DNA of 14,630 nucleotides, from the IMG/VR virus record IMGVR_UViG_3300029288_004479. The stretch is one strand, 5' to 3'. The stretch comes from a virus. Taxonomy: Duplodnaviria; Heunggongvirae; Uroviricota; Caudoviricetes. Below the pieces are notes generated by a model, which did no database searches, was not told the DNA's origin, and was given only the letters and a program-made list of their open reading frames with translations. Made by a program: the position numbers and the translations under genes. Of this stretch, positions 1 to 14,630 are shown piece by piece. Numbering within the stretch: the stretch's first letter is position 1; each line of letters starts with the position of its first letter.

Positions 1-54
1 TCGATATACCAATTTTATTACTATTAGGGTTTGGAGGAGGGTCAACAAAAGCGA

Positions 55-888
55 ATGCCAGTTGACGCAACAGCAATCATAGGTCTTCTTATAGGGTTCC
101 TTGTCGTAGGCGTGATAGGGGTATATGTGGGAGATCAGATGGTAAGTGCAGCAAACTTATCAGCAACAAACACATATACAACAGGAAACACCGAAGTTAC
201 AACTACTTCTTCATGGACAATTCCAGCCAACGTATACTCTATTGATCTTATCGTCATAGGGTCAGGTGGTGGTGGAGGTTCAGGTACAAACTCAACCGAG
301 AAAGGTGGTGGCGCTGGTGGAGCCGGTACAGCATCAACGTATACGGGAATATCTACAACACCGGGCGGTTCAGTAGCAATCGTCATTGGAGCCGTAGGTA
401 CAGGGGGAACAGATGGTAACGGCACAGCAGGAGCGGCCTCGTCCGCGACAGTAGGTGCAACGCCATACACAGGAGCAGGTGGATCAAAAGGTATTAACGG
501 TACAAGTGCAACCATAAACGGTGCTAATGGTGCTGCCGGATACGGTGCAACAGGATCATCAGGTACGGCAACAGCAGGTACGGGAGTAGTGACTCCGGGT
601 ACAGCAGGCACAGTAGGAACCGGTCGGGGTGCAGGTGGCCCGGGTGGTGGTATGGGAGCAGCAGGGTCTGACGGATCTGGTGGTAACGGTGCCGCAGGTG
701 CCGTAGAGATCACGTATTACACGACAACAGGAACTGTTGATCCATTGTATGCATCACAACAGAGTGTAGTTAGTACATTCCAGTTAGGTGTAATATTATG
801 TAAGATCATTGTTATCGTATCAATAGCAAGTATAGTATTTGTACTCCTTCAGAAGACCGGACTGATTCCACGGTTTGGAGAAAGGTAA
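55..888 (+). CDS. Putative virion structural protein: two hydrophobic helices (spindle-shaped-virus capsid-like architecture) flanking a Gly/Thr-rich domain
   Basis: The track starts at TTG 31, but ATG 55 downstream of GGAGGAGG is more likely. N-terminal AIIGLLIGFLVVGVIGVYVG and C-terminal FQLGVILCKIIVIVSIASIVFVLL hydrophobic segments. The central VYSIDLIVIGSGGGGGSG...GGGAGGAG...GAAGAVEITY segment is typical of phage glycine-rich domains. Four N-X-S/T sequons. The capsid assignment is inference. Confidence 0.6.
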   Translation: MPVDATAIIGLLIGFLVVGVIGVYVGDQMVSAANLSATNTYTTGNTEVTTTSSWTIPANVYSIDLIVIGSGGGGGSGTNSTEKGGGAGGAGTASTYTGISTTPGGSVAIVIGAVGTGGTDGNGTAGAASSATVGATPYTGAGGSKGINGTSATINGANGAAGYGATGSSGTATAGTGVVTPGTAGTVGTGRGAGGPGGGMGAAGSDGSGGNGAAGAVEITYYTTTGTVDPLYASQQSVVSTFQLGVILCKIIVIVSIASIVFVLLQKTGLIPRFGER

Positions 889-918
889 CTTAAAAAGTTA
901 CTTACATTAACCTTTTTT
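863..918 (+). repeat. Copy 1 of a ~57-bp imperfect direct repeat (gene 3' end + hairpin + T-tract, likely terminator)
   Basis: tgattccacggtttggagaaaggtaacttaaaaagttacttacattaacctttttt; 48 of 59 aligned columns match 1301-1359; inverted repeat GTAACTT/AAGTTAC at 885-901, then a T6 tract. Confidence 0.85.
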
Positions 919-970
919 AGTAATCGTGCAAAATAGCAAATATTACTTCCTTTTATTATAGATAAGGCAG

Positions 971-1284
971 CAAGAAAACCCCTGTTTTTAAACAGGGGAT
1001 GAATTGCGTTAACCCAAACAAATAAATCTGAACGCATTGAAACTATGAGTGACCATACAATGTTGAATTGTATGTGTGTTGCTCTCACAACAAGATTGTG
1101 CGAACACAATGTAGCTGGTGATTCTCCCGCAAACGAGATAGTCAGTAGTGGCCGTTTCAACCGGCCTGTGAGAATAAGGTTGGCTTTCGAGCCGACAAAC
1201 TTCTCCAAAGTAATTAGAACGAGATGTGTTGTTCACCAGAACGACCTCACGCTCAATCCTCCCATTTTAACGGGAGGTAGTTGA
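971..1284. mobile_element. Non-autonomous IS200/IS605-family element with no transposase or nuclease ORF and a structured-RNA interior
   Basis: Subterminal hairpins at both ends: caagaaaaCCCCTGTTT-tt-AAACAGGGGatgaattgc (979-998) and CCTCCC-attttaac-GGGAGGtagttga (1258-1284). On the minus strand these read TCAACTACCTCCC...GGGAGG and GCAATTCATCCCC...GGGGTTTTCTTG, matching IS200/IS605 end patterns as I recall them from IscB-type elements. Exact boundaries are uncertain by a few nt. Confidence 0.7.
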
Positions 1285-1326
1285 ATACAGAGGAATGGGT
1301 TGATTCCACGTTCTGGAGACGATTAG
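1285..1326 (+). pseudogene. Remnant 3' end of a paralogue of the 55-888 gene
   Basis: ata cag agg aat ggg ttg att cca cgt tct gga gac gat tag = IQRNGLIPRSGDD*, versus LQKTGLIPRFGER* at the end of 55-888. Confidence 0.7.
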
Positions 1327-1359
1327 TGACTTAAAAAGTTACCTATATTAACCTTTTTT
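1301..1359 (+). repeat. Copy 2 of the ~57-bp repeat (hairpin + T-tract terminator)
   Basis: tgattccacgttctggagacgattagtgacttaaaaagttacctatattaacctttttt; hairpin GTGACTT/AAGTTAC is retained with one G.U pair. Confidence 0.85.
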
Positions 1360-1366
1360 GAGAAAG

Positions 1367-1398
1367 TATATATCTGCAAGCGATTAAACATATATCTG
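1367..1398 (+). promoter_or_regulatory. Putative archaeal promoter with TATATATCTG motif (two copies)
   Basis: TATATATCTGCAA at 1367-1379 and ATATATCTG at 1390-1398, upstream of the operon starting at 1445; the same 13-mer recurs at 11020. Confidence 0.5.
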
Positions 1399-1444
1399 AT
1401 TGCTATAATGTAGCAAATCAGAAAGATGGTGGTCAGAAACAAAC

Positions 1445-2227
1445 ATGCCAAAAAAGAATGTATTAAATGACTGGGTTCTCCCATCAAAGTTTGAAGACCG
1501 GAAGAACGTACCGCTTGTAGACCTTACAACGGATTATTCATTTTATCCAAGAAAAACTGTGAATCAGGACAAGATTGACGAATACACGAAACTTGTCAAA
1601 AAGGGGCACGAGTTCCCGCCCATTGATGTTATTAATGTCGATGGTATCCTTAAGGTTTACGACGGATTCATGCGTTTTTCAGCATACCAGTCAGCTAACC
1701 GCACAACGATTAACTGTCGTGTAGTTAAAGGAACAAAACAGGATGCGTTACGGTTTGCAGCAAATAGCAATCTCGGTCGCAAAAAAGATCAGGGACTTCC
1801 ACGGAACAAAGATGATGTCGAGAAGATCGTCAGGAGTTTCCTGTGTGACGACATTCTTGGTAGTGCACCAAGTAAACTGATTAGTGATTGGGCACACGCA
1901 AACCCACAGGTTATTGCACGTATGCGCCCACCCGCAAGTGTTCGGGCATTAAGTCGGGGAAAACCGGGGGGTAGTTCCCCAAACTTGCCTGCATCTAGCC
2001 CTGTTGGTGTAACTGATGACGAAGGGTTAGATGCAGATCTCATAAAAAAACAGTTGTCATTAGAAGTAACAGATATCGTTGAACCGTCAAAGTCGGTTGA
2101 TGTCAAGGTTAGGTATAGCACATATGTGGTGCTGGAAGTAATCTTTAAGAAAACCCCCGGTCGTTGGGAAACTCTTGGCGACCTTGTAGAAGATCTTGCA
2201 ATACACAAACTAAAAACAATGGAGTGA
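1445..2227 (+). CDS. ParB/Srx-like N-terminal domain protein
   Basis: YPRKTVNQDKIDEY...EFPPIDV...KVYDGFMRFSAY (ParB DGxHR-like motif), followed by AANSN...GLPRNKDD...KIV and a probable HTH region. Confidence 0.75.
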   Translation: MPKKNVLNDWVLPSKFEDRKNVPLVDLTTDYSFYPRKTVNQDKIDEYTKLVKKGHEFPPIDVINVDGILKVYDGFMRFSAYQSANRTTINCRVVKGTKQDALRFAANSNLGRKKDQGLPRNKDDVEKIVRSFLCDDILGSAPSKLISDWAHANPQVIARMRPPASVRALSRGKPGGSSPNLPASSPVGVTDDEGLDADLIKKQLSLEVTDIVEPSKSVDVKVRYSTYVVLEVIFKKTPGRWETLGDLVEDLAIHKLKTME

Positions 2228-2236
2228 TGAAAAAAC

Positions 2237-3085
2237 ATGTTAACACAAATTGCAGAAATGCCGAACATCGGCAAGGAAATGATTACGCCCGGTCTTGCAC
2301 AGGCAATTCTTGGGTTGAACCACAGGAACCGTAAGATTGATCCGGATCGAGTAGATCATTTTGTTCGTCTTATCAAGACAAATCAATTTGACAACTCGGT
2401 TCCCGATCCGATTGTGATTGACAGGAACAACGTTCTCATTAACGGCCAGCACCGGCTGACCGCGATCAATAAATCGGGTGAATCAATTCCTATGTATGTC
2501 CAGCGTGGCAGTAACCACGACCTGATTCTCAACCTCGATCTTCAGAGGAAGAGGACTATCGGACAAGCCGCATACATTATGGAGAGCAACCACAACCAGT
2601 TCCACACCAAAATGGCGGCACTGATGTTCCAGATGTACGTTACCGAACTTAAGGGAGAACCGTTTACCAACATTAAACTCTCGGCAAAGGAAACCCTGAT
2701 GATTGCAGATAAGTTTACCAGCGGTATCAGGTTTGCAGAGAAGAGTTTCGGTCGGGCAACCGGCACGATTGGCCCGGTCAAAGCTGCACTTGCGCGTGCG
2801 TATTACGGAGAGACCGATAAAGACAAACTCTTTGAGTTCGGGCGGGTCTACAACACAGGGATGTATGATGCATCTATCGGTCAGGTTCCGGTAAAACTTG
2901 AGAAGTATGTTAACAGTATGTCGCGCAGTGCAAAGTATGATAAGAGCCGTGAGATTTATCTGGCGACAGAGTATGCGATCCGGCATTACATGCTTAACCG
3001 GCAGGTCAAGAAGATCAAACCGGCAGAAAAAGAATTATACCCTGCGGTTAATCAGATGTTTAAATCTCTGAACATCAAGATCTAA
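2237..3085 (+). CDS. ParB-like (DGQHR-type) domain protein of phage type
   Basis: ITPGLAQAIL..NHRNRKID..RV...DPIVIDRNNVLINGQHRLTAINKSG...YVQRG, the ITP/NR/DGQHRL pattern of phage ParB-like proteins. Confidence 0.75.
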   Translation: MLTQIAEMPNIGKEMITPGLAQAILGLNHRNRKIDPDRVDHFVRLIKTNQFDNSVPDPIVIDRNNVLINGQHRLTAINKSGESIPMYVQRGSNHDLILNLDLQRKRTIGQAAYIMESNHNQFHTKMAALMFQMYVTELKGEPFTNIKLSAKETLMIADKFTSGIRFAEKSFGRATGTIGPVKAALARAYYGETDKDKLFEFGRVYNTGMYDASIGQVPVKLEKYVNSMSRSAKYDKSREIYLATEYAIRHYMLNRQVKKIKPAEKELYPAVNQMFKSLNIKI

Positions 3086-3098
3086 TTTTTTTGATATT

Positions 3099-3374
3099 AT
3101 GGCTACGACAAGGATAGATTTACTTTCAAAAAAAGAGGATCAGTGTGATATGTGCAAATATTATGTTGCATTGAGCACCCTTGAGGGGTTTGAACAACAA
3201 CACCTTCTTGAACAAGAATCTTATGTTGGTAAGGATTATATAAATGATTATGGTAAGTGCCGACGCTATCCCCCATTATATCAACTTACCTATAAGAACA
3301 CACCGACATTTAAATTCCCAAGAATAAATGGATGTAACTGGTGCGGCGAGTTTAAAAGAAAGGAGGGTGAATGA
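3099..3374 (+). CDS. Small Cys-rich (probable metal-binding) viral protein
   Basis: CDMCKYY...GKCRRYPP...FPRINGCNWCGEFK; paralogous to 3836-4081. Confidence 0.75.
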   Translation: MATTRIDLLSKKEDQCDMCKYYVALSTLEGFEQQHLLEQESYVGKDYINDYGKCRRYPPLYQLTYKNTPTFKFPRINGCNWCGEFKRKEGE

Positions 3375-3454
3375 TAAACTTAAAAGTATTATCTGGACTT
3401 TTAATTTTATTATTTCTTGTACCCTGTGCGTCAGCGATGGAACAAATGAAATAA
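3371..3454 (+). CDS. Possible 27-aa ORF consisting of a signal-peptide-like sequence (not in the ORF track)
   Basis: ATG overlaps the previous TGA (ATGA) after GGAGG; MINLKVLSGLLILLFLVPCASAMEQMK*. Confidence 0.3.
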   Translation: MINLKVLSGLLILLFLVPCASAMEQMK

Positions 3455-3476
3455 CATGTAATGGTAGTTTACCACA

Positions 3477-3839
3477 ATGACCCCACAACAGCCCAACCCG
3501 TTGAGATGCGAGACATGCGAATTTGACCCATTGAAAAAAGGATTATCCTTTGAATCCTGTCCTTTGTGGGATCAAATCCCCTATGGACACGATGAGTTGT
3601 TTAGAGATGAGAGAATAAAACTTCTCGGACAGTTCCGCGTTACGACAAAGTATACGGGTTGCACCTCACATTCATCAATGGTAACCACCGAACAACGTAT
3701 TGAAGATGCAGTCGCGGAACTGGAACGAATCAGAAAACCAGATACACCAAGGTATGATCCATATGATAATGGGTGGGATACAGGATTTGAATGCGGGTGT
3801 AATCGGGCAATAAGTCTATTACAGGAGATTAAAAAATGA
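3477..3839 (+). CDS. Hypothetical protein with Cys cluster
   Basis: CETCEF...SCP...GCTSH; ATGA overlap with the next gene. Confidence 0.7.
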   Translation: MTPQQPNPLRCETCEFDPLKKGLSFESCPLWDQIPYGHDELFRDERIKLLGQFRVTTKYTGCTSHSSMVTTEQRIEDAVAELERIRKPDTPRYDPYDNGWDTGFECGCNRAISLLQEIKK

Positions 3840-4081
3840 GTCGTGAAACTACAGGGCCGGTTGGCGTAATCACGCACGGAAGACCAGAGGGAGAAAGTTG
3901 TGAGAACTGCTTTTACTGTCTTTCATATATAATTAGAGGATCTATTGGATTTAAACCTGCGAACATCGAGGTATTTGAATGTTGCAGGAATCCACCGGTT
4001 CAACCTTTTGATAACTGCGGATCATCGAAGTATCCCGAAACAAACGAAAATAACTGGTGTGGGGAGTGGAGGCATCGATGA
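3836..4081 (+). CDS. Small Cys-rich viral protein, paralogue of 3099-3374
   Basis: CENCFYC...ECCRNPP...YPETNENNWCGEWR. Confidence 0.75.
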   Translation: MSRETTGPVGVITHGRPEGESCENCFYCLSYIIRGSIGFKPANIEVFECCRNPPVQPFDNCGSSKYPETNENNWCGEWRHR

Positions 4082-4533
4082 CCAAAACTTCCCGGGATGT
4101 TGACAATCAGCAAAAAAAACAGCAATGCCATGCGACTGTATGTAAATTATATCCATCATGTGGGCGTTATAGTAATTATTTACCCCCCTGTGCCACAAAC
4201 GTTCCTGTAAAAAAACAGACATCTTCCGAATTACGCATGAACGAGGAACGAAGGGAATACAACATCTCGTTCAAAGAAGATCCATTACTTACGGCATTCG
4301 CTGAAGGTCAGAAATATGGGAGAGACGAAGAACGGAGGAGATTAAGAGATCTACTCAAAGCGATATTCAGTGATAAGGCAGAAACCGCAGATACATTGCT
4401 GCACGACCCCTTTACAAAATTGACCTCCAGAAGGACGTTAAAAATTCAAGGGACAACATTCGCTGAAGCAGTACTTATTGTTGAAGAATATTTAAGTGAA
4501 CAACACCAGCAAACATTTCTTAAAAAGGAGTAA
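4078..4533 (+). CDS. Hypothetical protein
   Basis: ATG 4078 overlaps the previous TGA and follows GGAGG, so it is preferred over the track's 4057 start; N-terminal C/H cluster, charged C-terminal part. Confidence 0.65.
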   Translation: MTKTSRDVDNQQKKQQCHATVCKLYPSCGRYSNYLPPCATNVPVKKQTSSELRMNEERREYNISFKEDPLLTAFAEGQKYGRDEERRRLRDLLKAIFSDKAETADTLLHDPFTKLTSRRTLKIQGTTFAEAVLIVEEYLSEQHQQTFLKKE

Positions 4534-4535
4534 AA

Positions 4536-5270
4536 ATGATACTTAAACAGATAACAATCACCGGTGCAGATGACGATACGGAACAAGACGATCTCTATTC
4601 TCTGTCAGAGAAATATCCATTTGTAGAATGGGGGATTCTGTGGTATCCTAAAAAGATGGGAGAACCACGGTATCCTACAAGTGGGTGGATAGGAAGATTC
4701 CTTAGCAAAAAACCGAAGAACGTATGTGTCTCACTTCATATCTGCGGGAGAGACGCAGTGGATTTTGGATATCGTATAGATGAATCTCCATTATGGGATT
4801 ATCTGATCAATGCAAACCGGGTTCAATTAAATTTCCCGTATAAAAAAGTGGATTTGGATACCGTTCTTGCGATGCTTCAACGAGGGAAATACGATCTACG
4901 GTATGCCATAAACCGATACCACGCCCTTGATCCCGGGCGGTATGTAATTATTCAGGCAAACGAAGGCAATAGAATCCTAAACGCATGTCTTGAAGATTAT
5001 CCCGCGATAGAATTTCTGTTTGACGAGTCAAGGGGTAATGGTGTAAGTATACGAGAATATCCGAAACCTATCGCGAGAAAACGCAATGGGTATGCTGGTG
5101 GAATAACACCGGATAATGTTCTGGCAGTTCTTCACGATCTAAAAAAAGTAGTTCCGGAATATGACGAGATTTGGCTTGATATGGAGTCCGGAGTTAGAAC
5201 GGATAATAAACTCGATCTTAAAAAAGTTAAATCTGTTCTGGCGGATGTTAATTCAAAAATAATACACTAA
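4536..5270 (+). CDS. Phosphoribosylanthranilate isomerase (TrpF)-like TIM-barrel protein, function unknown
   Basis: ITITGADD, VEWGIL, LHICG, RVQLN, FLFDESRGNG, YAGGITPDNV, WLDMESGVRT resemble the TrpF-like barrel family (AGGL.P.NV, D..SGV phosphate-binding end). Confidence 0.7.
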   Translation: MILKQITITGADDDTEQDDLYSLSEKYPFVEWGILWYPKKMGEPRYPTSGWIGRFLSKKPKNVCVSLHICGRDAVDFGYRIDESPLWDYLINANRVQLNFPYKKVDLDTVLAMLQRGKYDLRYAINRYHALDPGRYVIIQANEGNRILNACLEDYPAIEFLFDESRGNGVSIREYPKPIARKRNGYAGGITPDNVLAVLHDLKKVVPEYDEIWLDMESGVRTDNKLDLKKVKSVLADVNSKIIH

Positions 5271-5286
5271 AATGGAGTATTAAATT

Positions 5287-6066
5287 ATGGCAGAGAATTT
5301 ACCAGTAAAATGCACATTAAAAAAGCTCGGAAAAACATATAACCATCTCGGAAAGGAGATAATTACAGCAATTGTAATGGCAACTACGTTGTGTTTAGCC
5401 GCTCTTCCGGGAATGATCGTTGTGGCACTCGCAGTGTACGGGTATATCATTACCGTGGGTGTAGCAATGGCACCTTATCTACAGGTAGCACCACAGCCTT
5501 CTGTATCGCTTGTTTCAACGCAGTTTGTTGGATTTATGGCAACCCTCTTATTAGGTGCCGAACTCTTATGGGTTTGTGCAACAATAATGTATGTCTCTTT
5601 AATGTGGATCTACAAAAGAATGGGAATATTAGATCTGATTAATAAGATATCCGATTGGTGCGATGATTATTCTCCGATTACAAAAGCCGCAAAGGAAAAA
5701 GCAGAACTGGAAGATAAAACCCCCGAACTCATCGAAAAACCAACATATGATAACGCGTGGGCGAAATCAACACTTATTGAAGTTATATCAACGCCGGGGT
5801 TAGTGGCTCTCTTTGTAACACAAGTATTATTATTTGTTATTGCACGTTTAGGCATACAGACATTGATTACAGGAACTACAATGATTAAAATAATGTTAAT
5901 ATTTGCACCACAAACTCCTCCAGAAAGTATATCTGCGCTCTTTGTTGTTGTGGGTGCTGTGTTCATTGGTGTTGCAACGCTCCTTATTACAGAACCGTTA
6001 GTAAAATGTTTGTGCACGAACCTTAATGTAGACAAATTCGTCCAAGAACCGAGTGAGAATCAGTAA
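5287..6066 (+). CDS. Multi-pass membrane protein
   Basis: About four long hydrophobic segments in two pairs separated by a charged loop. Confidence 0.7.
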   Translation: MAENLPVKCTLKKLGKTYNHLGKEIITAIVMATTLCLAALPGMIVVALAVYGYIITVGVAMAPYLQVAPQPSVSLVSTQFVGFMATLLLGAELLWVCATIMYVSLMWIYKRMGILDLINKISDWCDDYSPITKAAKEKAELEDKTPELIEKPTYDNAWAKSTLIEVISTPGLVALFVTQVLLFVIARLGIQTLITGTTMIKIMLIFAPQTPPESISALFVVVGAVFIGVATLLITEPLVKCLCTNLNVDKFVQEPSENQ

Positions 6067-6102
6067 GGCTCATCAATAGCCCCTCTTTTTGCGGGGGAAT
6101 AG

Positions 6103-6110
6103 TTTATATA
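6103..6110 (+). promoter_or_regulatory. TATA box for the histone gene
   Basis: TTTATATA about 40 nt upstream of ATG 6149, with GAGGT RBS at 6135-6139. Confidence 0.55.
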
Positions 6111-6148
6111 CTACCTTATCATAAATGGTAATACGAGGTATTATATTT

Positions 6149-6496
6149 ATGGTATCAAAACCGGCAGAACTACCACTTGCACCAGTCAAGAGGGTATCGG
6201 AGAGTAGTGGAGTCCAGAGAATTGGGATTCCCGCCGTCGAGGTAATTGCGCTCGCGGCAAAAGAATGGATTAAGGAGATTACGACTAGTGCAGAGAAATA
6301 TGCGATCCATGCCGGTCGTAAAACAATAAAGCCAGAAGATATTCTTGTTGTCATTAAAGACAAGGGAATCACCGTTCAAATGCCAGCAAAGAAATCACGA
6401 AAATCATCTTCTTCTCAAAAGTCAGTTCAAAAGCCAGTAGCCGCACAACCCGCAGCGAAGCAGCCGGGTCAGCAGCCACAGCAACCCAAGCAGTGA
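6149..6496 (+). CDS. Archaeal histone (HMf-type fold) with ~40-aa basic low-complexity C-terminal tail
   Basis: ELPLAPVKRV...QRIG...AEKYAIHAGRKTIKPEDI aligns with HMfB ELPIAPIGRI...ERVS...AIKLARHAGRKTIKAEDI; start at 6149 is preferred over 6125 from TATA/RBS placement. Confidence 0.9.
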   Translation: MVSKPAELPLAPVKRVSESSGVQRIGIPAVEVIALAAKEWIKEITTSAEKYAIHAGRKTIKPEDILVVIKDKGITVQMPAKKSRKSSSSQKSVQKPVAAQPAAKQPGQQPQQPKQ

Positions 6497-6515
6497 TGGG
6501 GGTAAAACCCCATCA
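6494..6515 (+). other. Perfect 8-bp hairpin spanning the histone stop codon and the next start
   Basis: TGATGGGG-GTAAAA-CCCCATCA. Confidence 0.55.
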
Positions 6516-6790
6516 TGTTATCGGGTAACAGATATATTATATTTACACTCACAGAATTTCTCGGTGGGTTGTTATTATTTATCTTGGGTGTTTTGACGTT
6601 CCTTTCATCATTTACGATGAAATGTTCGGAAGCAGAGGTTATTACAGTCCAGATGGTATGTCTGATCATGATATATATCGGGGTACTTAAACTCGCTCCA
6701 TATGCAGACGAGTTTACTATGTGGGCGTATAATACAGGATCACAACATATATATGAATGGCAAACGAATAGGAAGAAGGACAAGAAATAA
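6515..6790 (+). CDS. Small two-TM membrane protein
   Basis: Two hydrophobic segments and a basic C-terminus. Confidence 0.6.
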   Translation: MLSGNRYIIFTLTEFLGGLLLFILGVLTFLSSFTMKCSEAEVITVQMVCLIMIYIGVLKLAPYADEFTMWAYNTGSQHIYEWQTNRKKDKK

Positions 6791-6803
6791 GTAAGCAAGC
6801 AGT

Positions 6804-6875
6804 GCTGGAGTAGGGTAGTGGTTATCCTTGGACATTTGGAGTGTTTAGACGCCGGTTCAATCCCGGCCTCCGGCA
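6804..6875 (+). tRNA. tRNA-Pro(TGG)
   Basis: Acceptor GCTGGAG/CTCCGGC, anticodon stem GGACA/TGTTT with loop TT-TGG-AG, T arm GCCGG-TTCAATC-CCGGC, A73, no encoded CCA. Confidence 0.8.
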
Positions 6876-6886
6876 TTTATTACAAC

Positions 6887-6958
6887 GTTGCTGTTGGGTA
6901 GTGGTTATCCTTGATGATCCGGAATCATCAGACGACAGTTCAAATCTGTCCAGCGACA
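6887..6958 (+). tRNA. tRNA-Pro(CGG), atypical (C33, U9)
   Basis: Acceptor GTTGCTG/CAGCGAC, anticodon stem GATGA/TCATC with loop TC-CGG-AA, T arm GACAG-TTCAAAT-CTGTC; D arm identical to the previous tRNA. Confidence 0.75.
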
Positions 6959-6979
6959 TTTCCTCAATGTGAGGAGCGA

Positions 6980-7052
6980 ACTCCCGTAGTCTAGCGGTCA
7001 AGGATGCCGGACTTTGAATCCGGCGGCGTCAGTTCGAATCTGTCCGGGAGTA
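6980..7052 (+). tRNA. tRNA-Gln(TTG)
   Basis: ACTCCCG/CGGGAGT with the archaeal Gln A1-U72 pair, CCGGA-CTTTGAA-TCCGG, one T-stem mismatch. Confidence 0.92.
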
Positions 7053-7072
7053 TCCCAAAAAAAGGGAAAAGA

Positions 7073-7145
7073 AGCCCCGTAGTGTAGCCGGTAATCATCA
7101 TAGACTCTGAATCTATGGAGGTCAGTTCGAATCTGACCGGGGCGA
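7073..7145 (+). tRNA. tRNA-Gln(CTG)
   Basis: AGCCCCG/CGGGGCG (A1.G72 mismatch), ATAGA-CTCTGAA-TCTAT, GTCAG-TTCGAAT-CTGAC. Confidence 0.88.
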
Positions 7146-7155
7146 TAGCAATCTC

Positions 7156-7164
7156 TTTTATATA
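7156..7164 (+). promoter_or_regulatory. TATA box upstream of pyrE-like gene
   Basis: TTTTATATA about 30 nt upstream of ATG 7191/7197. Confidence 0.5.
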
Positions 7165-7196
7165 CCCAGACGAACTATCTCTATTCGTGAATGTAT

Positions 7197-7717
7197 ATGG
7201 AAAATACAATTGCGGAGATGTTAATCAAGCGAAAGGCGATTGTATTTGGAGAGTTTAGTTCCCCGAATGGAGTGACCGCCGACTATATTATAAATATGAA
7301 ATCAGTAATAACTCATCCAGCAAGCCTCTCTTTGATAGCACATAAAATAATACAAGAGTTTGATTTTGATACGGTTGCCAGTGTAGTAATTAGCGGGTTA
7401 CCAATAGCAACAACAATCGCAATGATTGCTAACAAACCTTTAGCTATTATACGAAAAATTCCGGCAGATCATAATTTAAAAGAGGCAGTATCGGAGATGT
7501 CAAAGGAGAGAATGTCCTGCTTATTGAAGATGTGACGAGTAAAGGTGAATCGGCATTATATGGTGTAAAAGCGTTACGTGCATCGGGTGCAATGTCAAAT
7601 CGTGTAGTTACAATTATAAACAAAGAACAAGGTGCTGAACAGTTATTAAAATTAAATGATATTAGGTTATATGCATTATCCACAGTTAAAGATTTGAAAA
7701 GACTCGCCCTATCCTAA
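7197..7717 (+). pseudogene. pyrE: Orotate phosphoribosyltransferase-like gene split by a -1 frameshift between 7475 and ~7490
   Basis: Frame 1: AIVFGEF...DYIINMK...KPLAIIRK..ADH. The -1 frame continues IGDVKGENVLLIEDVTSKGESALYGVKALRASGA...VVTIINKEQGAEQLL. Together they give a full-length archaeal PyrE fold. Confidence 0.85.
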
Positions 7718-7823
7718 AAATATAAATATGGGGGAGATCAACATAGATAATGTCAATACCGTAACACGTATTGACACACAAAAGGACAGCGCCAACGAAA
7801 GCAGCTAAAGTCATTCGGTATCC

Positions 7824-8114
7824 CCCAGATCTTCCCATTCACTGGACAAACAAAGAAAACGGTGGTGCCTGCGGCAGCACAAATGGTGGGAATTGGTAAA
7901 CGCTTGTCGATGTGTACAGCAAGTGGTTCTGTTCCGTGAGGGCAGGAGGTTTCCCACTCAATACAAAGTACCCAGATCTTCCCATTCACTGGGCAAACAA
8001 AGAAAACGGTGGAGTCTCCTTTATAGGGGGGCAAAAAACGGTGAAGTTCCAATCACTAATTCGAGGACTGACCTCGCTTAGTGGCCCCCGTTCCGTGAGG
8101 ACGGGGGGTTCACC
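7824..8114 (+). ncRNA. Two tandem ~150-nt structured RNA-like units of unknown class
   Basis: 42-bp direct repeat (7824-7865 / 7971-8012, 1 mismatch), plus diverged but co-varying three-way junctions (7886-7957 / 8040-8114) with a GUUCC-GUGA-GG tetraloop hairpin; no credible ORF. Confidence 0.65.
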
Positions 8115-8258
8115 CAAGAAGCAAATAACAGCAACCATCGGGCATAGGTGTATCATTTTCTCTTTCCCTCATTGTCCTTATCTCAAGAGGATAAAAAGAG
8201 ATGAGAATCGTATCTGTGGGGGTGTTGCCGCACCCCTATAGGTGCAAAAAAAACATAA

Positions 8259-8332
8259 GCCAGTATAGCATAGTGGTCTAATGCGTCGGTTTTGTAAACC
8301 GAATGTCGAGAGTTCAAATCTCCCTACTGGCT
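8259..8332 (+). tRNA. tRNA-Thr(TGT)
   Basis: GCCAGTA/TACTGGC, GCAT/ATGC D stem, TCGGT-TTTGTAA-ACCGA, U73; one T-stem mismatch. Confidence 0.92.
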
Positions 8333-8336
8333 TTCT

Positions 8337-8409
8337 GCCTCTGGAGCAGTGAAGGTACTGCGCCACTTTCGTAAAGTGGAAGTAACGGGTTCGATCCCCG
8401 TCAGAGGCT
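8337..8409 (+). tRNA. tRNA-Thr(CGT), atypical core (G8, U14, A48)
   Basis: GCCTCTG/CAGAGGC, GCAG/CTGC, CCACT-TTCGTAA-AGTGG, ACGGG-TTCGATC-CCCGT, U73. Confidence 0.85.
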
Positions 8410-8413
8410 TCCA

Positions 8414-8485
8414 GTCACTGGAGCAGTATGGTATTGCGCCTGCTTGGTAAGCAGGAAGTAGTGGGTTCAATTCCCATCGGTGGCT
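8414..8485 (+). tRNA. tRNA-Thr(GGT), atypical core (G8, U14, A48)
   Basis: GTCACTG/CGGTGGC, GCAG/TTGC, CCTGC-TTGGTAA-GCAGG, GTGGG-TTCAATT-CCCAT, U73. Confidence 0.85.
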
Positions 8486-8488
8486 CTT

Positions 8489-8574
8489 CAAGTGAAAGCT
8501 TGGACGAATCCCAAACGTAAAATGGGTGGTGCGGATGTCGTGAAAACGACCGCCGTGGATATTATATATCCACG
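8489..8574 (+). other. Hairpin-dense spacer between tRNAs (possible small ncRNA or processing element)
   Basis: CAAGT-GAAA-GCTTG, CCCA..TGGG, GTCGT-GAAA-ACGAC, CGTGGATAT-TAT-ATATCCACG. Confidence 0.45.
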
Positions 8575-8586
8575 TTAAAAACAAAT

Positions 8587-8698
8587 GGGCCTATAGTGTG
8601 AGCGGCAGCACGTCAGACTTTTAAGGGGACTCTTCCCACGACCACCACGGAGTTCCCGAAGAAATCTGATTGCACGGGTTCGATTCCCGTTAGGCCCA
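8587..8698 (+). tRNA. tRNA-Lys(TTT) with a 40-nt intron (8624-8663) at position 37/38
   Basis: GGGCCTA/TAGGCCC, TCAGA..TCTGA anticodon stem. Bulge-helix-bulge: CUUU pairs with GAAG (8658-8661), bulges UA|A and AA|A, intron stem GGGGACTC/GAGTTCCC. Confidence 0.93.
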
Positions 8699-8722
8699 TT
8701 AGACCCGTATAAGACCCATATT

Positions 8723-8947
8723 ATGAAGTTATTGTTTCATCTTTTCGAAAACTCCAACGCCGCTCGTGGCAAATGTTGTTATACTTGTTGTCAAAGGAAA
8801 TGGGATTACGTCGCGCACCAATATCGTTGTGATATATTACAAAGGCAAGTGAAAGAAAACTACATATGCACAAATTTCATGTGGTGGGACGGAAAATCAA
8901 ATACAATCCATAGGGAATGGACGTATCCCCCGGCAGCAATACCATAA
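8723..8947 (+). CDS. Small Cys-rich hypothetical protein inside the tRNA array
   Basis: KCCYTCC...YRCDIL...YICTNF; fills the gap between two tRNAs. Confidence 0.55.
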   Translation: MKLLFHLFENSNAARGKCCYTCCQRKWDYVAHQYRCDILQRQVKENYICTNFMWWDGKSNTIHREWTYPPAAIP

Positions 8948-8992
8948 AAAAACACAAGTATTATAATCTTATAAGGCAATTTAATAAAAAGA

Positions 8993-9064
8993 GGGTGCGT
9001 GGTATAACGGACATTATCACAGCCTGTCACGTTGTGGACTCGCGTTCAACTCGCGGCGCATCCG
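8993..9064 (+). tRNA. tRNA-Asp(GTC)
   Basis: GGGTGCG/CGCATCC, ACAGC-CTGTCAC-GTTGT, TCGCG-TTCAACT-CGCGG, G73. Confidence 0.92.
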
Positions 9065-9085
9065 TTTTATGTATGGGATAAATTT

Positions 9086-9676
9086 ATGTTAACTTCAGAA
9101 CAGGCAAGAAAAATTGGAATTATTGGTGCAAAACTTACAGGTGAAATAAGTAAACAACGCAGATTAGTAGCAATTGCAAATTACGATAAAGATCCAAAAT
9201 TATGTCTAATCTGTGGTAAACCACTATCCTACCAACAGAAACTTAATAGAAATAAATATTGTAGTCATTCATGTGCTGCAACAAAATCAAATCAAAACAG
9301 AAAAGTAAAAAGAATGTGTTTGTTTTGTGGGAAAATACTAAATAAAGATCAAAAAAAGTTTTGCAGTCACACATGTCATGGTAATTATGTTACATCAAAA
9401 CACATGATGGATGGAGAACCATGCAGTCCAAAATCATTAAGAAGATATTTATTAGTAACAAGAGTGTATATGTGTTCAGAATGTGGATTACCAACGTGGA
9501 AAAATAAGCCAATTCCATTGGAAGTGCACCATATTGATGGGAATTGTGATAACAATAAGGAAGAAAACTTGGAATTATGGTGTAGAAACTGTCATGGTTT
9601 AACTGAAAATTTTGGAAATCGTAATAAAACAGGGAATGGAAGAAGAGTAAAAACAAGATTAAAAAAACACAATTAA
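9086..9676 (+). CDS. HNH (homing-type) endonuclease with N-terminal zinc-ribbon repeats
   Basis: CLICG..YCSHSC, CLFCG..FCSHTC, then CSECG...LEVHHIDGNCDNNKEENLELWCRNCH. The track start at 9032 lies inside tRNA-Asp; ATG 9086 is used instead. Confidence 0.92.
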   Translation: MLTSEQARKIGIIGAKLTGEISKQRRLVAIANYDKDPKLCLICGKPLSYQQKLNRNKYCSHSCAATKSNQNRKVKRMCLFCGKILNKDQKKFCSHTCHGNYVTSKHMMDGEPCSPKSLRRYLLVTRVYMCSECGLPTWKNKPIPLEVHHIDGNCDNNKEENLELWCRNCHGLTENFGNRNKTGNGRRVKTRLKKHN

Positions 9677-9690
9677 AATTTAACTTTATT

Positions 9691-10377
9691 ATGACAAACG
9701 ACACATTACTCGAAAAAGTGAAAATGGCGGTTGTCATTTTCCTATATTTTGGGATAATATATCCAATACGGTTTATTATATGGCCTCTCACTAAAATAAT
9801 TTATACTAATATTTACCTATTTGTCTGCCTGTTTTTCATTTGGGTAATGTCAATTATGGGTGTTTTTAAGAATTTTAACGAAACGTTCAGTCAAAAAATA
9901 ATGGAAAACCGCCTTGATTTAATATGGACTATTAAACCCATTGTAACAATATTTGGTTTTGAAATAACTCCTATGCATATTTTCATCGTAATTATGGGGT
10001 TATTATTTATATACAGGATCTTTGAAGTAATTAATAATATAATAAGTATGGTAAAAGTGATCCTCGGGCATACACTTATGGCGGTGTTGTGGGTATGGTT
10101 TACAATATGTGGGGATAAAGATCGTGCCGTAATGTTCATCCAATCACCAAGTGAAAGAAAATCAATATTAGTATTTTGGGGACTTCTGGTTTTGGCAATA
10201 ATAGCAGTAATTGTATTCTTTTATCTCAAATCATTATCACAAGACATATCTTCAGATTATCTTATAACCTCAATGAATATGACATCACACTTAAATGATA
10301 CGGTATCGTTAGGAACACCGGCATTAAATAATATCTCTTTACAGGAAGCAATTGACAAAACATACGAGATGGTGTAA
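9691..10377 (+). CDS. Multi-pass membrane protein
   Basis: About five hydrophobic segments; C-terminal region with several N-X-S/T sequons (NMT, NDT, NIS). Confidence 0.7.
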   Translation: MTNDTLLEKVKMAVVIFLYFGIIYPIRFIIWPLTKIIYTNIYLFVCLFFIWVMSIMGVFKNFNETFSQKIMENRLDLIWTIKPIVTIFGFEITPMHIFIVIMGLLFIYRIFEVINNIISMVKVILGHTLMAVLWVWFTICGDKDRAVMFIQSPSERKSILVFWGLLVLAIIAVIVFFYLKSLSQDISSDYLITSMNMTSHLNDTVSLGTPALNNISLQEAIDKTYEMV

Positions 10378-10378
10378 C

Positions 10379-11017
10379 ATGGAATTTCAGATAGATGGAA
10401 CTGTATTACCAATACTTACCATAACCCTAAAAAAAGGAGAATCCGTATATTCTCAAAGTGGTTCATTAGTGTCAATGACAGAAGGTATAGTATTCCAGAC
10501 GGAATTACTGGGTGGGATTACAAAGGCGATACGTAGGTTAGCCGGAAAAGAATCAGCATTCATTACAAGGTTTATCGCAAAAGAGGATGGGGCAGTAGTA
10601 TCATTCTCGGAAGAAAACGTTCCGGGTGTGACTCGTGCATTCTATTTAGATAACGATGAACTGTTATGTGAACGATCATCATTTTTGTGTTCGGAATCGA
10701 CGGTAGATCTGGACATTGCGTTCTTAAGAAAAATATCGGCAGGGATATTCAGTAAAGAGAGTTTTGTTTTCTTACGTGTGTCAGGGAAAGGATACGTGTT
10801 TCTCCACCCACACGGTGAGATTAAAGAACACACATTAAAAGAAGGGGAGAAATTACGGGTTTCACGCGGTAAAGTTGTGGCGTTTGAAAAGACTGTTGAC
10901 TTTAATGTAGTGTTCTTAAAAACAGCAAAAACCATTTTGTTCTCGAAAGAAGGTTTGTTTATTACAGAGTTGACCGGGCCGGGAAAAGTATATGTCCAAT
11001 CGACAGTGAAATGGTAA
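10379..11017 (+). CDS. AIM24 family (TIGR00266-like) protein
   Basis: I.GTVLPILTITLKKGESVYSQSGSLVSM...ESAFITRF...LCERSSFLC...ESFVFLRVSGKGYVFLH.HG...FSKEGLFITELTGPGKVYVQS; ATG 10379 follows the previous stop. Confidence 0.9.
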   Translation: MEFQIDGTVLPILTITLKKGESVYSQSGSLVSMTEGIVFQTELLGGITKAIRRLAGKESAFITRFIAKEDGAVVSFSEENVPGVTRAFYLDNDELLCERSSFLCSESTVDLDIAFLRKISAGIFSKESFVFLRVSGKGYVFLHPHGEIKEHTLKEGEKLRVSRGKVVAFEKTVDFNVVFLKTAKTILFSKEGLFITELTGPGKVYVQSTVKW

Positions 11018-11019
11018 AC

Positions 11020-11032
11020 TATATATCTGCAA
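11020..11032 (+). promoter_or_regulatory. TATATATCTGCAA promoter-like motif
   Basis: Identical to 1367-1379; lies upstream of GGAGGT RBS and ATG 11070. Confidence 0.5.
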
Positions 11033-11069
11033 CAATCATATTATGATATTAACAATCAGGAGGTTGTAT

Positions 11070-11261
11070 ATGGTTGAATCAGAAAATAAAAGTGTGCCTT
11101 TTTCCGGGTATATCTGGTTAATCGGTCTGTTTATTTGTTGTGTTGCTCTTGTAGCAAACCGTTATGTTCCCGAGGACAGTATGTTAACTACATCAATGTC
11201 CGTTGCGGGGCTTGTCGTAATGGTGATCTTCGGCGCACGGGCGATTGCATATAAATCATGA
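11070..11261 (+). CDS. Small two-TM membrane protein
   Basis: GGAGGT at 11059-11064 favours ATG 11070; two hydrophobic segments. Confidence 0.65.
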   Translation: MVESENKSVPFSGYIWLIGLFICCVALVANRYVPEDSMLTTSMSVAGLVVMVIFGARAIAYKS

Positions 11262-11578
11262 AAGTTAAAGAAACCACAATGCAATCCGTTACAATAGAGA
11301 AGCGGTATTGCGATCAATGTGGAAAAGAGACGCATGAGTTAAGTTGTCACCAACGGCACTGTAATTTGTGTGGGAAAGATCTTTGTTGGGATTGTACAAC
11401 CACCGTTGATGAAGTGGACGAACCGGATATTTGGCACACAAGTTATTGCAAATCCTGCTTTGAGATTTATCGCAAAAACAAACAAGAATTAGACGAACTG
11501 GATCTTAAAATCAACACGATCTGGAATAAAATGAGAGAAGAAGCAGAAAAAAAGAGAGTAGATTTCAGGAGGGAATAA
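11258..11578 (+). CDS. Zinc-finger protein with C-terminal coiled coil
   Basis: CDQC, CNLC, CWDC, CKSC motifs. Confidence 0.75.
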   Translation: MKVKETTMQSVTIEKRYCDQCGKETHELSCHQRHCNLCGKDLCWDCTTTVDEVDEPDIWHTSYCKSCFEIYRKNKQELDELDLKINTIWNKMREEAEKKRVDFRRE

Positions 11579-11581
11579 TTA

Positions 11582-11794
11582 ATGTTAAAAGATAGTTTTA
11601 TTTTAGTAAGTAAATTATTGATAAGTGTTATTTTTATCGGAATCGTTGCATATATATCAGTAACGGCGTCGTCGGGGATATTAGGGATCATTGGTCTTGA
11701 GAGTCCAACCGTAGGAATATTAATCGCATTATTAATCGCAGCAGCAATGTCGAGTGCAGCGTTAACGGGAATAGATAGGAGTTATTTGAAATGA
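11582..11794 (+). CDS. Small two-TM membrane protein
   Basis: Hydrophobic; similar to 11791-12057. Confidence 0.65.
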   Translation: MLKDSFILVSKLLISVIFIGIVAYISVTASSGILGIIGLESPTVGILIALLIAAAMSSAALTGIDRSYLK

Positions 11795-12057
11795 AGATAA
11801 GTTGTGTAGTAAAAACATCTATATTCTATCTAATAACTTTTATTGCAGCAGTGATCTATTTCGGAATTTCGGTTGCGGTATCAGGGTTTCTTTCGTTACA
11901 TATCCTTGGATTTTTTGGAATTGATAAATCTGCATATCAAGGCATGGCACTAATGGTATTAGTATTGAGTATATTAATTATAATTATATGTTTATCTACT
12001 GGGGTAACCGAGTGTTATCTCAAAGAAAAAGAAAAAAGAAAGAAAGAGGTGTTGTAA
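11791..12057 (+). CDS. Small two-TM membrane protein, likely paralogue of 11582-11794
   Basis: ILGFFGIDK...STGVTECYLK versus ILGIIGLES...LTGIDRSYLK. Confidence 0.65.
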   Translation: MKISCVVKTSIFYLITFIAAVIYFGISVAVSGFLSLHILGFFGIDKSAYQGMALMVLVLSILIIIICLSTGVTECYLKEKEKRKKEVL

Positions 12058-12350
12058 TGACGATTGCAGACGATCTTATGAAGACAGCACCGTTTGAAAT
12101 GGGGTTTGGAGTAGGTGGTGTAGTTATAGGAATATCTTGTTTATGCTCATTATGGCTTATATTGAGTGCCATGTCGATAGACACCGAACAATCCCTTGCG
12201 GTTACACGAGTATTAATGGAACACAAAGTGTTTATTGTTAGTCTGATATACGGATTTTGTTTTATGATCTTTCTCGGATGGGGCGGGTTAATGGCGGCAA
12301 TAATAAAGACCATAAAAAACACAAACCGGTCAAACAACAATGACATATAA
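12057..12350 (+). CDS. Small two-TM membrane protein
   Basis: ATG 12057 overlaps the previous TAA (TAATG); two hydrophobic segments. Confidence 0.65.
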   Translation: MTIADDLMKTAPFEMGFGVGGVVIGISCLCSLWLILSAMSIDTEQSLAVTRVLMEHKVFIVSLIYGFCFMIFLGWGGLMAAIIKTIKNTNRSNNNDI

Positions 12351-12367
12351 AACAACGAGGCTATATA

Positions 12368-12649
12368 ATGGAAGGAACACCACCGATCTTAAATATTCAC
12401 TCACAGAAAGATCCGCACGATAATTGTTATATCGTGGGTAATTGGCATGGACTAGTTAATTTACACAAAGCATTGAATGCGTATTTCGAAGATAAAAAAG
12501 AAGAAAGAGAATTCTTTGTTAGTGATGGAGAAGGATATACCCTTCATATTATCCGTGAAGACAATGTAGACAGATTAGCACTTCCCTACACCTCGGAAAC
12601 ATCACAAGAGCGAAGAGACTACGCGAGATATCCGTGGGGCGTTAAATAA
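12368..12649 (+). CDS. Hypothetical protein of a type I associate with phages
   Basis: H..YIVGN..GL..L..AL....FF.SDGEGY.L.I...L.LPY pattern; family not named. Confidence 0.65.
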   Translation: MEGTPPILNIHSQKDPHDNCYIVGNWHGLVNLHKALNAYFEDKKEEREFFVSDGEGYTLHIIREDNVDRLALPYTSETSQERRDYARYPWGVK

Positions 12650-13159
12650 ATGGAACAACAACCTGTAATCCTGTTTGATGCACAGAAGATTTACAAGAAA
12701 ATAACAACAAACTCAACCTATGAAGATGCACATATGGAAATCATATTTGGGTTAATAATGTTGATACCCTTCCTCTTTCTATGGGTAATGTTCACTGGAG
12801 GGGCGTTGTATCCCGAAGACCGAATTATAACCGTAGATTCGGTTGAATATCATTCTCATGTCACGTCAACTGCATGGAACGATCCCAACTACGTTACAGG
12901 AGAATATATTGAAATAAGGATCACCGATACAAATGGTGCAAAATATGAATTCTCACCATCAAAACACGCTCTAGATAATCCTATGTATGCCAAAATCAAT
13001 AATGGCTGGGCGTTTCTTCCACACGAGCAAACAATAGAATCTGGTGGGAAATACAAAATAACATTGTGGCATTCGATATTCATGGGGAATTATGTTACCG
13101 ATAGTTTCTCAAACTGGAATCCTAATCCCGAAATATCAAAATGTGTGAGGTTGGATTAA
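12650..13159 (+). CDS. Membrane-anchored protein with probable extracellular beta-rich domain
   Basis: Single TM IIFGLIMLIPFLFLWVMF followed by a polar, beta-strand-like region. Confidence 0.65.
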   Translation: MEQQPVILFDAQKIYKKITTNSTYEDAHMEIIFGLIMLIPFLFLWVMFTGGALYPEDRIITVDSVEYHSHVTSTAWNDPNYVTGEYIEIRITDTNGAKYEFSPSKHALDNPMYAKINNGWAFLPHEQTIESGGKYKITLWHSIFMGNYVTDSFSNWNPNPEISKCVRLD

Positions 13160-13199
13160 TGGTGGCAATCGTGAAAATTATAAAAACAGATACCCAACA

Positions 13200-13373
13200 A
13201 TGACATATAAAACCCCATTTGATGAATATTCATTGGTGGAAATGTTACGCGATTGGGAGATCGATGCAACAACAGCCGGTAACCTTGAAGAAGCAAAAGC
13301 ATATCGGCGTGTAATTAACAGTGTATTAAATGGTGTTGTAAATCAAAGACCTCACGTAAAATACAGGATATAA
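13200..13373 (+). CDS. Small hypothetical protein, 57 aa (not in the ORF track)
   Basis: MTYKTPFDEYSLVEMLRDWEIDATTAGNLEEAKAYRRVINSVLNGVVNQRPHVKYRI*; stop is 3 nt before the aglB start. Confidence 0.55.
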   Translation: MTYKTPFDEYSLVEMLRDWEIDATTAGNLEEAKAYRRVINSVLNGVVNQRPHVKYRI

Positions 13374-13376
13374 ATT

Positions 13377-14630
13377 ATGAAGATTCCAGACCTCAAAAAC
13401 AGAAACACATGGGCAATTATATCGATTGTAACCTTTTTTACAATCTTTGCTCTCTGGCTACGGCTACTGCCGCTGCTGACATTAGGCAATGCAGATAATA
13501 TGAATATCGTGGGGAGCGACGACCCGTTGTATAACCTGCGCCTTGTTGAACATATGCTTGCGAACAACATGAACTATCCGTGGTTCGATGCGATGACACA
13601 ATATCCGATTGGAACACCAGTATATTGGGGGCCATTATTCACGACAGTGATCGCAATCGCATGCCTTCTTGTTGGAGCAACAACCCGCCCGGAGATCCTT
13701 AATGTTTTACTGATAGTCCCGCCGTTAATGGGAGTTGCACTTGTTCCGGTTATGTATTATGCGGGAAAGGTCTGTGGCGACTGGAAAACCGGTTTAATCA
13801 CGTCGGGATTTACAGCAGTTATTGCAGGGACATTTTTCTACAGGTCGATCTATGGATATGCCGATCACCACATTGCAGAAGTATTATTCTCGGCGATATT
13901 CTGTCTGTTATATATGTATACGCTCCTGTCGGAGAAAGACAAGAAGATCGATCTGAAAGATATCGGGACGTATAAAAGTGCACTTCTCCTCGCATTTATA
14001 ACGGGTATTGCGTATTTCCTCGGTTTAATGGTAATGCCGACAATGATCTTGTTTGCAATGATAGCGGGGATATACACGATCCTACAGTTTATTATCGATA
14101 GGTTTAGAGGGAAATCAAGTGAATACTTATTAATTATTAACGCCGTGGTCTTTACAGTAGTAACGGTCAGTCTTCTGGTATTCGGACTGAAAAACACAAC
14201 CGGTCTGGATCTTACAACATATTCAATAGGTCATATATATGCATATATAGGTTTAATTGCCGGTTCGGTTATTTTATACGCGCTCCAGCAATACCTTACA
14301 TCTAAAGACAAACTCTATTACCCGGGAGTGATTGCAGGTATTGGTATAGTTACTGCGGTAATCCTGAGTATAGTTAACCCCCAATTATACTCGTTGTTTA
14401 TCAGCAACTTCTTCTCGTTCTTCGGGCAGGTAAGTATTACAAACACCGTTCAGGAAGCGAGAGGATGGACAATGGAACTGGCATGGTCAACGTTCAATTA
14501 CAGTATTATCTTGATGATTGGCGGATTCTTGGTGATGTTATATAACAATATCAAGGATGACAGACCGGAACAGGTATTTGCAATGGTTTGGTCAGTTATT
14601 ATCTTTGCGTCTACATGGCAACACGTCCGG
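13377..14630 (+). CDS. aglB: Oligosaccharyltransferase AglB (STT3 family), 5' portion, runs off the window end
   Basis: Translated by hand, 418 codons with no stop: MKIPDLKNRNTW...LRLLP...GSDDPLYNLRLVE...YPWFDAMTQYP.GTPVYWGPLF...PPLMG...FFYRSIYGYADHHIAEVLF...TVQEARGW...STWQHVR. Contains the catalytic D, DxH and TIXE-like motifs. Confidence 0.95.
   Translation, partial: MKIPDLKNRNTWAIISIVTFFTIFALWLRLLPLLTLGNADNMNIVGSDDPLYNLRLVEHMLANNMNYPWFDAMTQYPIGTPVYWGPLFTTVIAIACLLVGATTRPEILNVLLIVPPLMGVALVPVMYYAGKVCGDWKTGLITSGFTAVIAGTFFYRSIYGYADHHIAEVLFSAIFCLLYMYTLLSEKDKKIDLKDIGTYKSALLLAFITGIAYFLGLMVMPTMILFAMIAGIYTILQFIIDRFRGKSSEYLLIINAVVFTVVTVSLLVFGLKNTTGLDLTTYSIGHIYAYIGLIAGSVILYALQQYLTSKDKLYYPGVIAGIGIVTAVILSIVNPQLYSLFISNFFSFFGQVSITNTVQEARGWTMELAWSTFNYSIILMIGGFLVMLYNNIKDDRPEQVFAMVWSVIIFASTWQHVR

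Follow-up and report, generated by a model that had tools for sequence, protein, structure and literature searches.

AglB transfers preassembled sugar chains to proteins. To our knowledge, viruses have until now been thought to bring sugar-adding enzymes at most, the final transfer being left to the host. The stretch of DNA analysed here (14,630 nt in its whole length, referred to below as the window) ends inside a reading frame that resembles aglB and follows an array of virus-like genes. The question raised by this locus is whether the gene belongs to the virus-like element itself or is a cellular gene that happens to be seen in such company. We consider it likely that the frame encodes a functional AglB, acquired from a host and now an auxiliary gene of a virus-like element that is large (~217 kb), AT-rich and associated with Methanoregula-type methanogens. 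In short, this is an orthodox, complete AglB at an unorthodox location. The coordinates of the relevant features are collected in Table 1.

Table 1. Features of the aglB locus (positions in the window unless another locus is named)
Feature	Position	Strand	Remarks
Virus-like context	31..9676	+	Gly-rich 'minor tail' type protein, two ParB-like nucleases, Cys-rich ORFans, tailed histone, eight tRNA genes, HNH endonuclease
Small membrane ORFs (overlapping or abutting), AIM24 protein, zinc-finger ORF	9691..12350	+	On the strand of aglB
Exact 19-nt direct repeat, left copy	12335..12353	+	At the stop of ORF 11988-12350
Two-gene cassette between the 19-nt repeats	12368..13159	+	93-aa protein and 169-aa membrane-anchored ORFan
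TATA-like box ATTATAAAA	13177..13185	+	~24 nt before ATG 13200, inside a 40-nt gap
Exact 19-nt direct repeat, right copy	13195..13213	+	Spans the start codon of the 57-aa ORF
57-aa soluble ORFan	13200..13373	+	Ends 3 nt before the aglB start
aglB, first 418 of 860 codons	13377..14630	+	Open frame, Pfam/NCBIfam, motifs, 100% match to P0002
Loci with a second, non-syntenic aglB	L038, L054, L056, L058, L063, L064, L074, L076, L112, L117-L119, L121, L122, L124, L127, L150; G001:C1:856762-859389		

The aglB reading frame and its product

The plus-strand frame opens with the ATG at 13377 and is still uninterrupted after 418 codons, where the window ends. A preliminary description of this DNA had reported such a frame with four motifs, and all four were found: GSDDP at residues 46-50, GYADHH at 160-165, TVQE at 357-360 and, at the very end, R418. 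The 418-residue part, with D49, D163/H165, E360 and R418, would correspond to the membrane GT-C domain. It is matched by the Pfam STT3 model (PF02516) with 3.6e-21 and 76.6 bits vs. a cutoff of 24.5, and on TIGR04154 the half-length protein scores 397 bits.

The residues expected of the catalytic centre can be followed one by one in the alignments. D49 (GSDDP, external loop 1) is invariant in the AglB alignment and aligns with the equivalent Asp of the A. fulgidus enzyme AfAglB-L (PDB 3WAJ). The second metal-binding motif, of the D-x-H type, is D163-H164-H165 (GYADHH), which was aligned to GFNDHH of 3WAJ. The TIXE-type motif of external loop 5 is represented by TVQE, in which E360 is invariant in the AglB alignment. 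R418, located after the membrane domain, is likewise invariant there, and it is aligned to an Arg of 3WAJ.

A search of a protein collection yielded a full-length version of 860 aa, P0002, which is 100% identical across the 418 residues. It is flagged as a product of the DNA analysed here, and there are records of it from three contigs, the longest of which has 216,809 bp. Judging by this length, the 3' end of aglB lies ~1.33 kb past the end of the window. P0002 scores 853 bits on NCBIfam TIGR04154 (cutoff 450), with a match to profile positions 2-831 of 831, and its C-terminal domain contains WWDYG (565-569) and the DK motif D622...K629, both beyond the window on the same contig. The two motifs and the end-to-end profile match show that the C-terminal domain is not truncated. 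The preliminary description, which had placed WWDYG out of its reach, had named such a truncation as an outcome that would tell against its reading.

The match of 3WAJ to P0002 has a value of 3e-44 with the motifs aligned. An AlphaFold2 model based on a 10-row alignment is of low confidence (pLDDT 59); a Foldseek search with this pLDDT 59 model returned AfAglB at the top (7E9S, 3WAK, 3WAJ), then eukaryotic STT3 and then PglB, with TM-scores of ~0.47. The reported AglB/STT3 oligosaccharyltransferase frame is confirmed, and the set of motifs is complete in P0002.

Gene neighbourhood and the junction upstream of aglB

The genes of the window are all located on one strand, and 4-nt overlaps between them are frequent. 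In the virus-like part, the Gly-rich protein matches phage minor-tail families (4e-12), the two ParB-like nucleases match phrog_5931 (1e-31) and phrog_1033, and the HNH endonuclease matches phrog_1271 (3e-23). No capsid or packaging genes were found within the window, and the 13 kb preceding aglB are free of sugar genes. When 23 window proteins were compared by tblastn with 160 host aglB loci, no match was obtained except one, on a locus (L065) that is described below. A comparison of positions 1-13376 with 228 Methanoregulaceae genomes gave matches which, among those listed, all lie in the tRNA array near 6966-7070.

Some smaller features of the virus-like part were also recorded. Between tRNA-Gln and tRNA-Thr there is a tandem repeat (7824-7870 and 7971-8017, ~147 nt apart) with 47-nt cores that are 94% identical, a possible structured RNA. 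The 3' end of the Gly-rich gene, together with a hairpin-and-T-run sequence (850-918), is repeated ~440 nt downstream (1288-1359) with 78-91% identity, and there may have been an insertion between the two copies. A short ORF at 7191-7535 gives a weak phosphoribosyltransferase match (E 0.019) and is perhaps a piece of a pyrE-like gene.

The order of genes at the host loci is as follows: two GlmU-like genes, glmS, a hexapeptide acetyltransferase, GT4, aglB, DUF2098, eIF2-gamma, Rpo7, Kae1-Bud32 and Ham1. This conserved block occupies 4050-19947 in L091 and is the same in L003, L082, L109 and L111. None of its genes is present upstream of the window's aglB, though GT4, glmS and glmU directly precede aglB in the two clades that are nearest to the element copies.

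Instead of host genes, a 57-aa ORFan abuts aglB, with the 3-nt spacing that had been described for it. No match of this ORF to Pfam or PHROG models was found, nor any homologue in the 160 host aglB loci. The two genes are probably co-transcribed. The TATA-like box ATTATAAAA, which has counterparts before the histone gene (6125) and before the ORF at 11043, is a candidate promoter just upstream of the pair, and as far as its sequence and position go, it may be the promoter of the 57-aa ORF/aglB unit. The earlier remark that the gene has no separate promoter gap thus holds for aglB itself, while the two-gene unit, preceded by the 40-nt gap containing the box, may have a promoter of its own. The plus strand between 11917 and 13433 has no run of five or more T, so that transcription from the upstream genes can enter aglB; a scan for sigma-70 promoters and intrinsic terminators is uninformative for archaea. 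On the upstream side, the strand shared with the virus-like genes and the lack of such an oligo-T run support the original reading of an element-encoded AglB.

An exact 19-nt direct repeat is found near the junction, with an estimated chance expectation of ~4e-4 in 14.6 kb. It had been suggested that an att site be looked for near 13160-13377. The search brought up only this repeat pair, which encloses an upstream two-gene cassette of 860 bp and not aglB; neither a tRNA nor an integrase gene was found at the junction upstream of aglB. The pair has the look of an internal event in the element, a small insertion or a duplication, and not of a provirus end. The 93-aa protein of the cassette (12368-12649) has an invariant DGEG motif and belongs to a large unnamed family of 1,714 representative clusters at E<=1e-3, for which no Pfam or PHROG model was found. 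Searches of IMG/VR with the ParB-like protein and the 93-aa family yielded no relatives, the alignment being in part too diverse to scan.

These data bear on the possibility that aglB belongs to the host chromosome, directly beyond the end of an integrated provirus, or that it was joined to the array by mis-assembly. AglB is ordinarily a chromosomal core gene, the flank seen here is the upstream one, a direct repeat does lie near the junction, and the GC3 of aglB (0.47) is above that of most element neighbours (~0.2-0.4). Nevertheless, we regard this explanation as improbable, since host synteny is missing upstream, the junction with the ORFan measures 3 nt with no oligo-T run before aglB, the repeat delimits the cassette and no provirus end, and the exact AglB protein is present on three contigs. 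Moreover, the window AglB is at most 63% identical overall to the other 160 AglBs of the tree presented below and has a long branch. The preliminary description would have been contradicted if aglB were the host's single syntenic copy; the absence of the conserved block genes upstream speaks against that. As for GC3, the sister host genes range from 0.51 to 0.63, and the intermediate value of aglB fits a captured gene part-way to the composition of the element.

Origin and maintenance of the gene

The nearest relatives of the window AglB are all AglBs of Methanoregula or Methanoregulaceae, with 60-63% identity overall and no more than 66% in the N-terminal half. Trees were built for 161 AglBs with FastTree and for 47 with IQ-TREE. 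An AglB tree had been put forward as a check on the preliminary description; in both trees, the copy is nested within a Methanoregula clade of 13 rows (SH-aLRT 100), and its end branch is long, 0.6 vs. a median of 0.21. The hosts of this clade have ~47-55% GC, and the chromosomal block is kept by all members whose flank is long enough. Since the copy is nested in a clade with chromosomal synteny, it derives from the hosts' main aglB and not from the clades of second, non-syntenic paralogues. Together with the lack of the host block in the context seen, that of the upstream side, this nesting argues for an auxiliary host-derived gene on the element.

The paralogues themselves are common. Many Methanoregula MAGs have a second aglB that lies away from the conserved block and groups in clades of its own in the tree (Table 1), which means that the hosts often have more than one oligosaccharyltransferase. 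In one complete chromosome the AglB paralogue is just 39% identical to P0002. A Methanoregula-type AglB with 56% identity was also seen on a 2.6-kb contig binned as Dehalococcoidales (L155), probably because of a binning error.

Another explanation would be that a low-GC Methanomicrobiales archaeon has the 217-kb piece as a plasmid-like or secondary replicon, with aglB as the working copy of the cell and not a viral auxiliary gene. Genes of cellular type are indeed present in the window (histone, AIM24, tRNAs), and low-GC hosts do exist, as illustrated by L109 with 42% GC. However, L109 and other low-GC hosts keep the syntenic block, the window AglB nests among hosts of ~47-55% GC with the chromosomal block, and the neighbours are of ParB-like, HNH and tail type. 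We therefore give this explanation little credence.

A second case was found on the above-mentioned L065, a metagenome contig of 6.5 kb with 37.7% GC, where an intact aglB has small same-strand ORFans alone on both sides and no host synteny. Its AglB has a branch of 0.67 and is placed in another clade of Methanoregula (SH-aLRT 99). Forcing the L065 and window copies together gave a tree that was rejected with an lnL difference of 84 and an AU p of 1e-4; this grouping had been chosen with the tree already in view. The capture on L065 is thus separate from that of the window, so that aglB has left the chromosome for low-GC, ORFan-rich DNA at least twice. The protein encoded at 5956-6249 of L065 (97 aa) resembles the 93-aa protein of the window (36% identity, 1e-21), the two genes being located on opposite sides of aglB. 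Whether the 93-aa gene marks L065 as kin of the window was considered, and the marker was dropped, because a family with 1,714 representative clusters is too widespread for its sharing to prove kinship of L065 with the window's element.

The host AglBs also allow an estimate of the constraint on the element copy. Of the 87 columns at which 150 host AglBs do not vary, it keeps 86, and it keeps 144 of the 149 columns with at least 98% conservation, as compared to 40% agreement with the host majority at variable columns. The five departures at columns with at least 98% conservation are G376S, N581T, F630L, N727K and P752S. The retention of conserved columns despite the long branch indicates that the element aglB is under purifying selection and probably encodes a working enzyme.

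The opposite assumption would be that aglB is a passenger copy that has no role and is drifting to loss. The long terminal branch and the five departures at highly conserved columns might be taken in its favour. We find it very hard to accept, given that the 860-codon frame is intact, that 96-99% of the conserved residues are kept vs. 40% at variable sites, that all catalytic motifs are intact, and that the independent second capture on L065 is intact as well. The element copy is an intact and probably working gene.

Proposed role and comparison with known glycosylation systems

The data above show what the gene is, that it is complete, that its upstream context is not that of a host, that it comes from a host and that it is under purifying selection. 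What we infer about the expression, activity, targets and benefit of the element AglB can be put together as follows. With aglB taken by the element from the main chromosomal locus of its host, the gene would be read with the 57-aa ORF, either from the TATA-like promoter at ~13177-13185 or by read-through of the co-directional array. By analogy with A. fulgidus AglB, the protein would be inserted in the host membrane, where D49, D163/H165 and E360 would hold a metal ion, R418 would bind the phosphate of the dolichol-linked glycan, and WWDYG with the DK motif would read the Ser/Thr of N-X-S/T sequons. On the same analogy, exported proteins would receive dolichol-linked glycans made by the host or modified by the element. 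The most likely benefit would be that N-glycosylation capacity is kept or raised for the exported or virion proteins of the element during infection; a change of the host surface glycans would be a less likely alternative.

It had been proposed that the enzyme serves a sequon-bearing, capsid-like protein of the element. The counts do not support this. The Gly-rich capsid-like protein has 4 sequons vs. 2.2 expected (p 0.17), which is within chance, and its enrichment was discarded as a candidate signal. The window proteins overall are not enriched, with 16 sequons observed vs. 17.8 expected. The multi-pass membrane protein encoded at 9691-10377 has 5 N-X-S/T sequons vs. 1.4 expected, a number that is reached in none of 500 shuffles. 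Three sequons of this protein are located in its C-terminal tail; a weak match to PMT_2 (GT-C) was noted for it (E 0.011).

A more far-reaching scheme, which seems to us doubtful, is that a drifted donor or acceptor preference, in combination with glycosyltransferases, gives rise to a different N-glycan on host S-layer and virion proteins. As in phage seroconversion, superinfection would be blocked or receptors would be masked, and the capture of aglB would be a recurrent strategy, with at least two independent captures from Methanoregula.

With an AglB of its own, an element could continue to glycosylate its proteins independently of the host, or it could alter the host surface. In general, such a gene adds to the picture of very large methanogen elements with genes for chromatin, translation and surface modification. 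Archaeal N-glycosylation governs S-layer stability, virus attachment and virion stability, and for most archaeal viruses the reliance on host glycosylation machinery is unknown (PMC10384203). Complementation systems with aglB mutants exist (PMC5131992). No relative of the AglB was found in IMG/VR, searched with the single protein and with the alignment, or in the GenBank phage collection, searched by tblastn, so that there is no recognised viral precedent in these two collections. Searches of the literature for a virus- or phage-encoded oligosaccharyltransferase, and of the literature on Borgs for an oligosaccharyltransferase, found none; in the literature on large viruses of Methanoregula and other methanogens, no description of the window's element was found.

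Three known systems can be compared with the element AglB. The closest is the chromosomal AglB of Methanoregula (TIGR04154, 'oligosaccharyl transferase, archaeosortase A system-associated'), which it matches in length, motifs and start position. In contrast to the chromosomal gene, the element copy has virus-like ORFans on its upstream side, where the glmU-glmS-GT4 / DUF2098-eIF2gamma neighbourhood would have glmU, glmS and GT4, and has a terminal branch about three times longer and a lower GC3. The AglB-L of A. fulgidus (3WAJ, 3WAK, 5GMY, 7E9S) combines a multi-pass membrane domain with a C-terminal domain that faces outward, an architecture predicted for the element copy as well, and D49, D163/H165, R418, WWDYG and the spaced DK motif (DVEMAQGK vs. 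DIEMETGK) align between the two, although their identity is as low as ~21%. Finally, the glycosyltransferases of archaeal viruses, e.g., A197 of STIV (PMC10384203), likewise represent a part of the protein-glycosylation pathway carried by a mobile element. These are, however, soluble enzymes that add sugars, whereas the element AglB is the final, membrane-bound enzyme of transfer.
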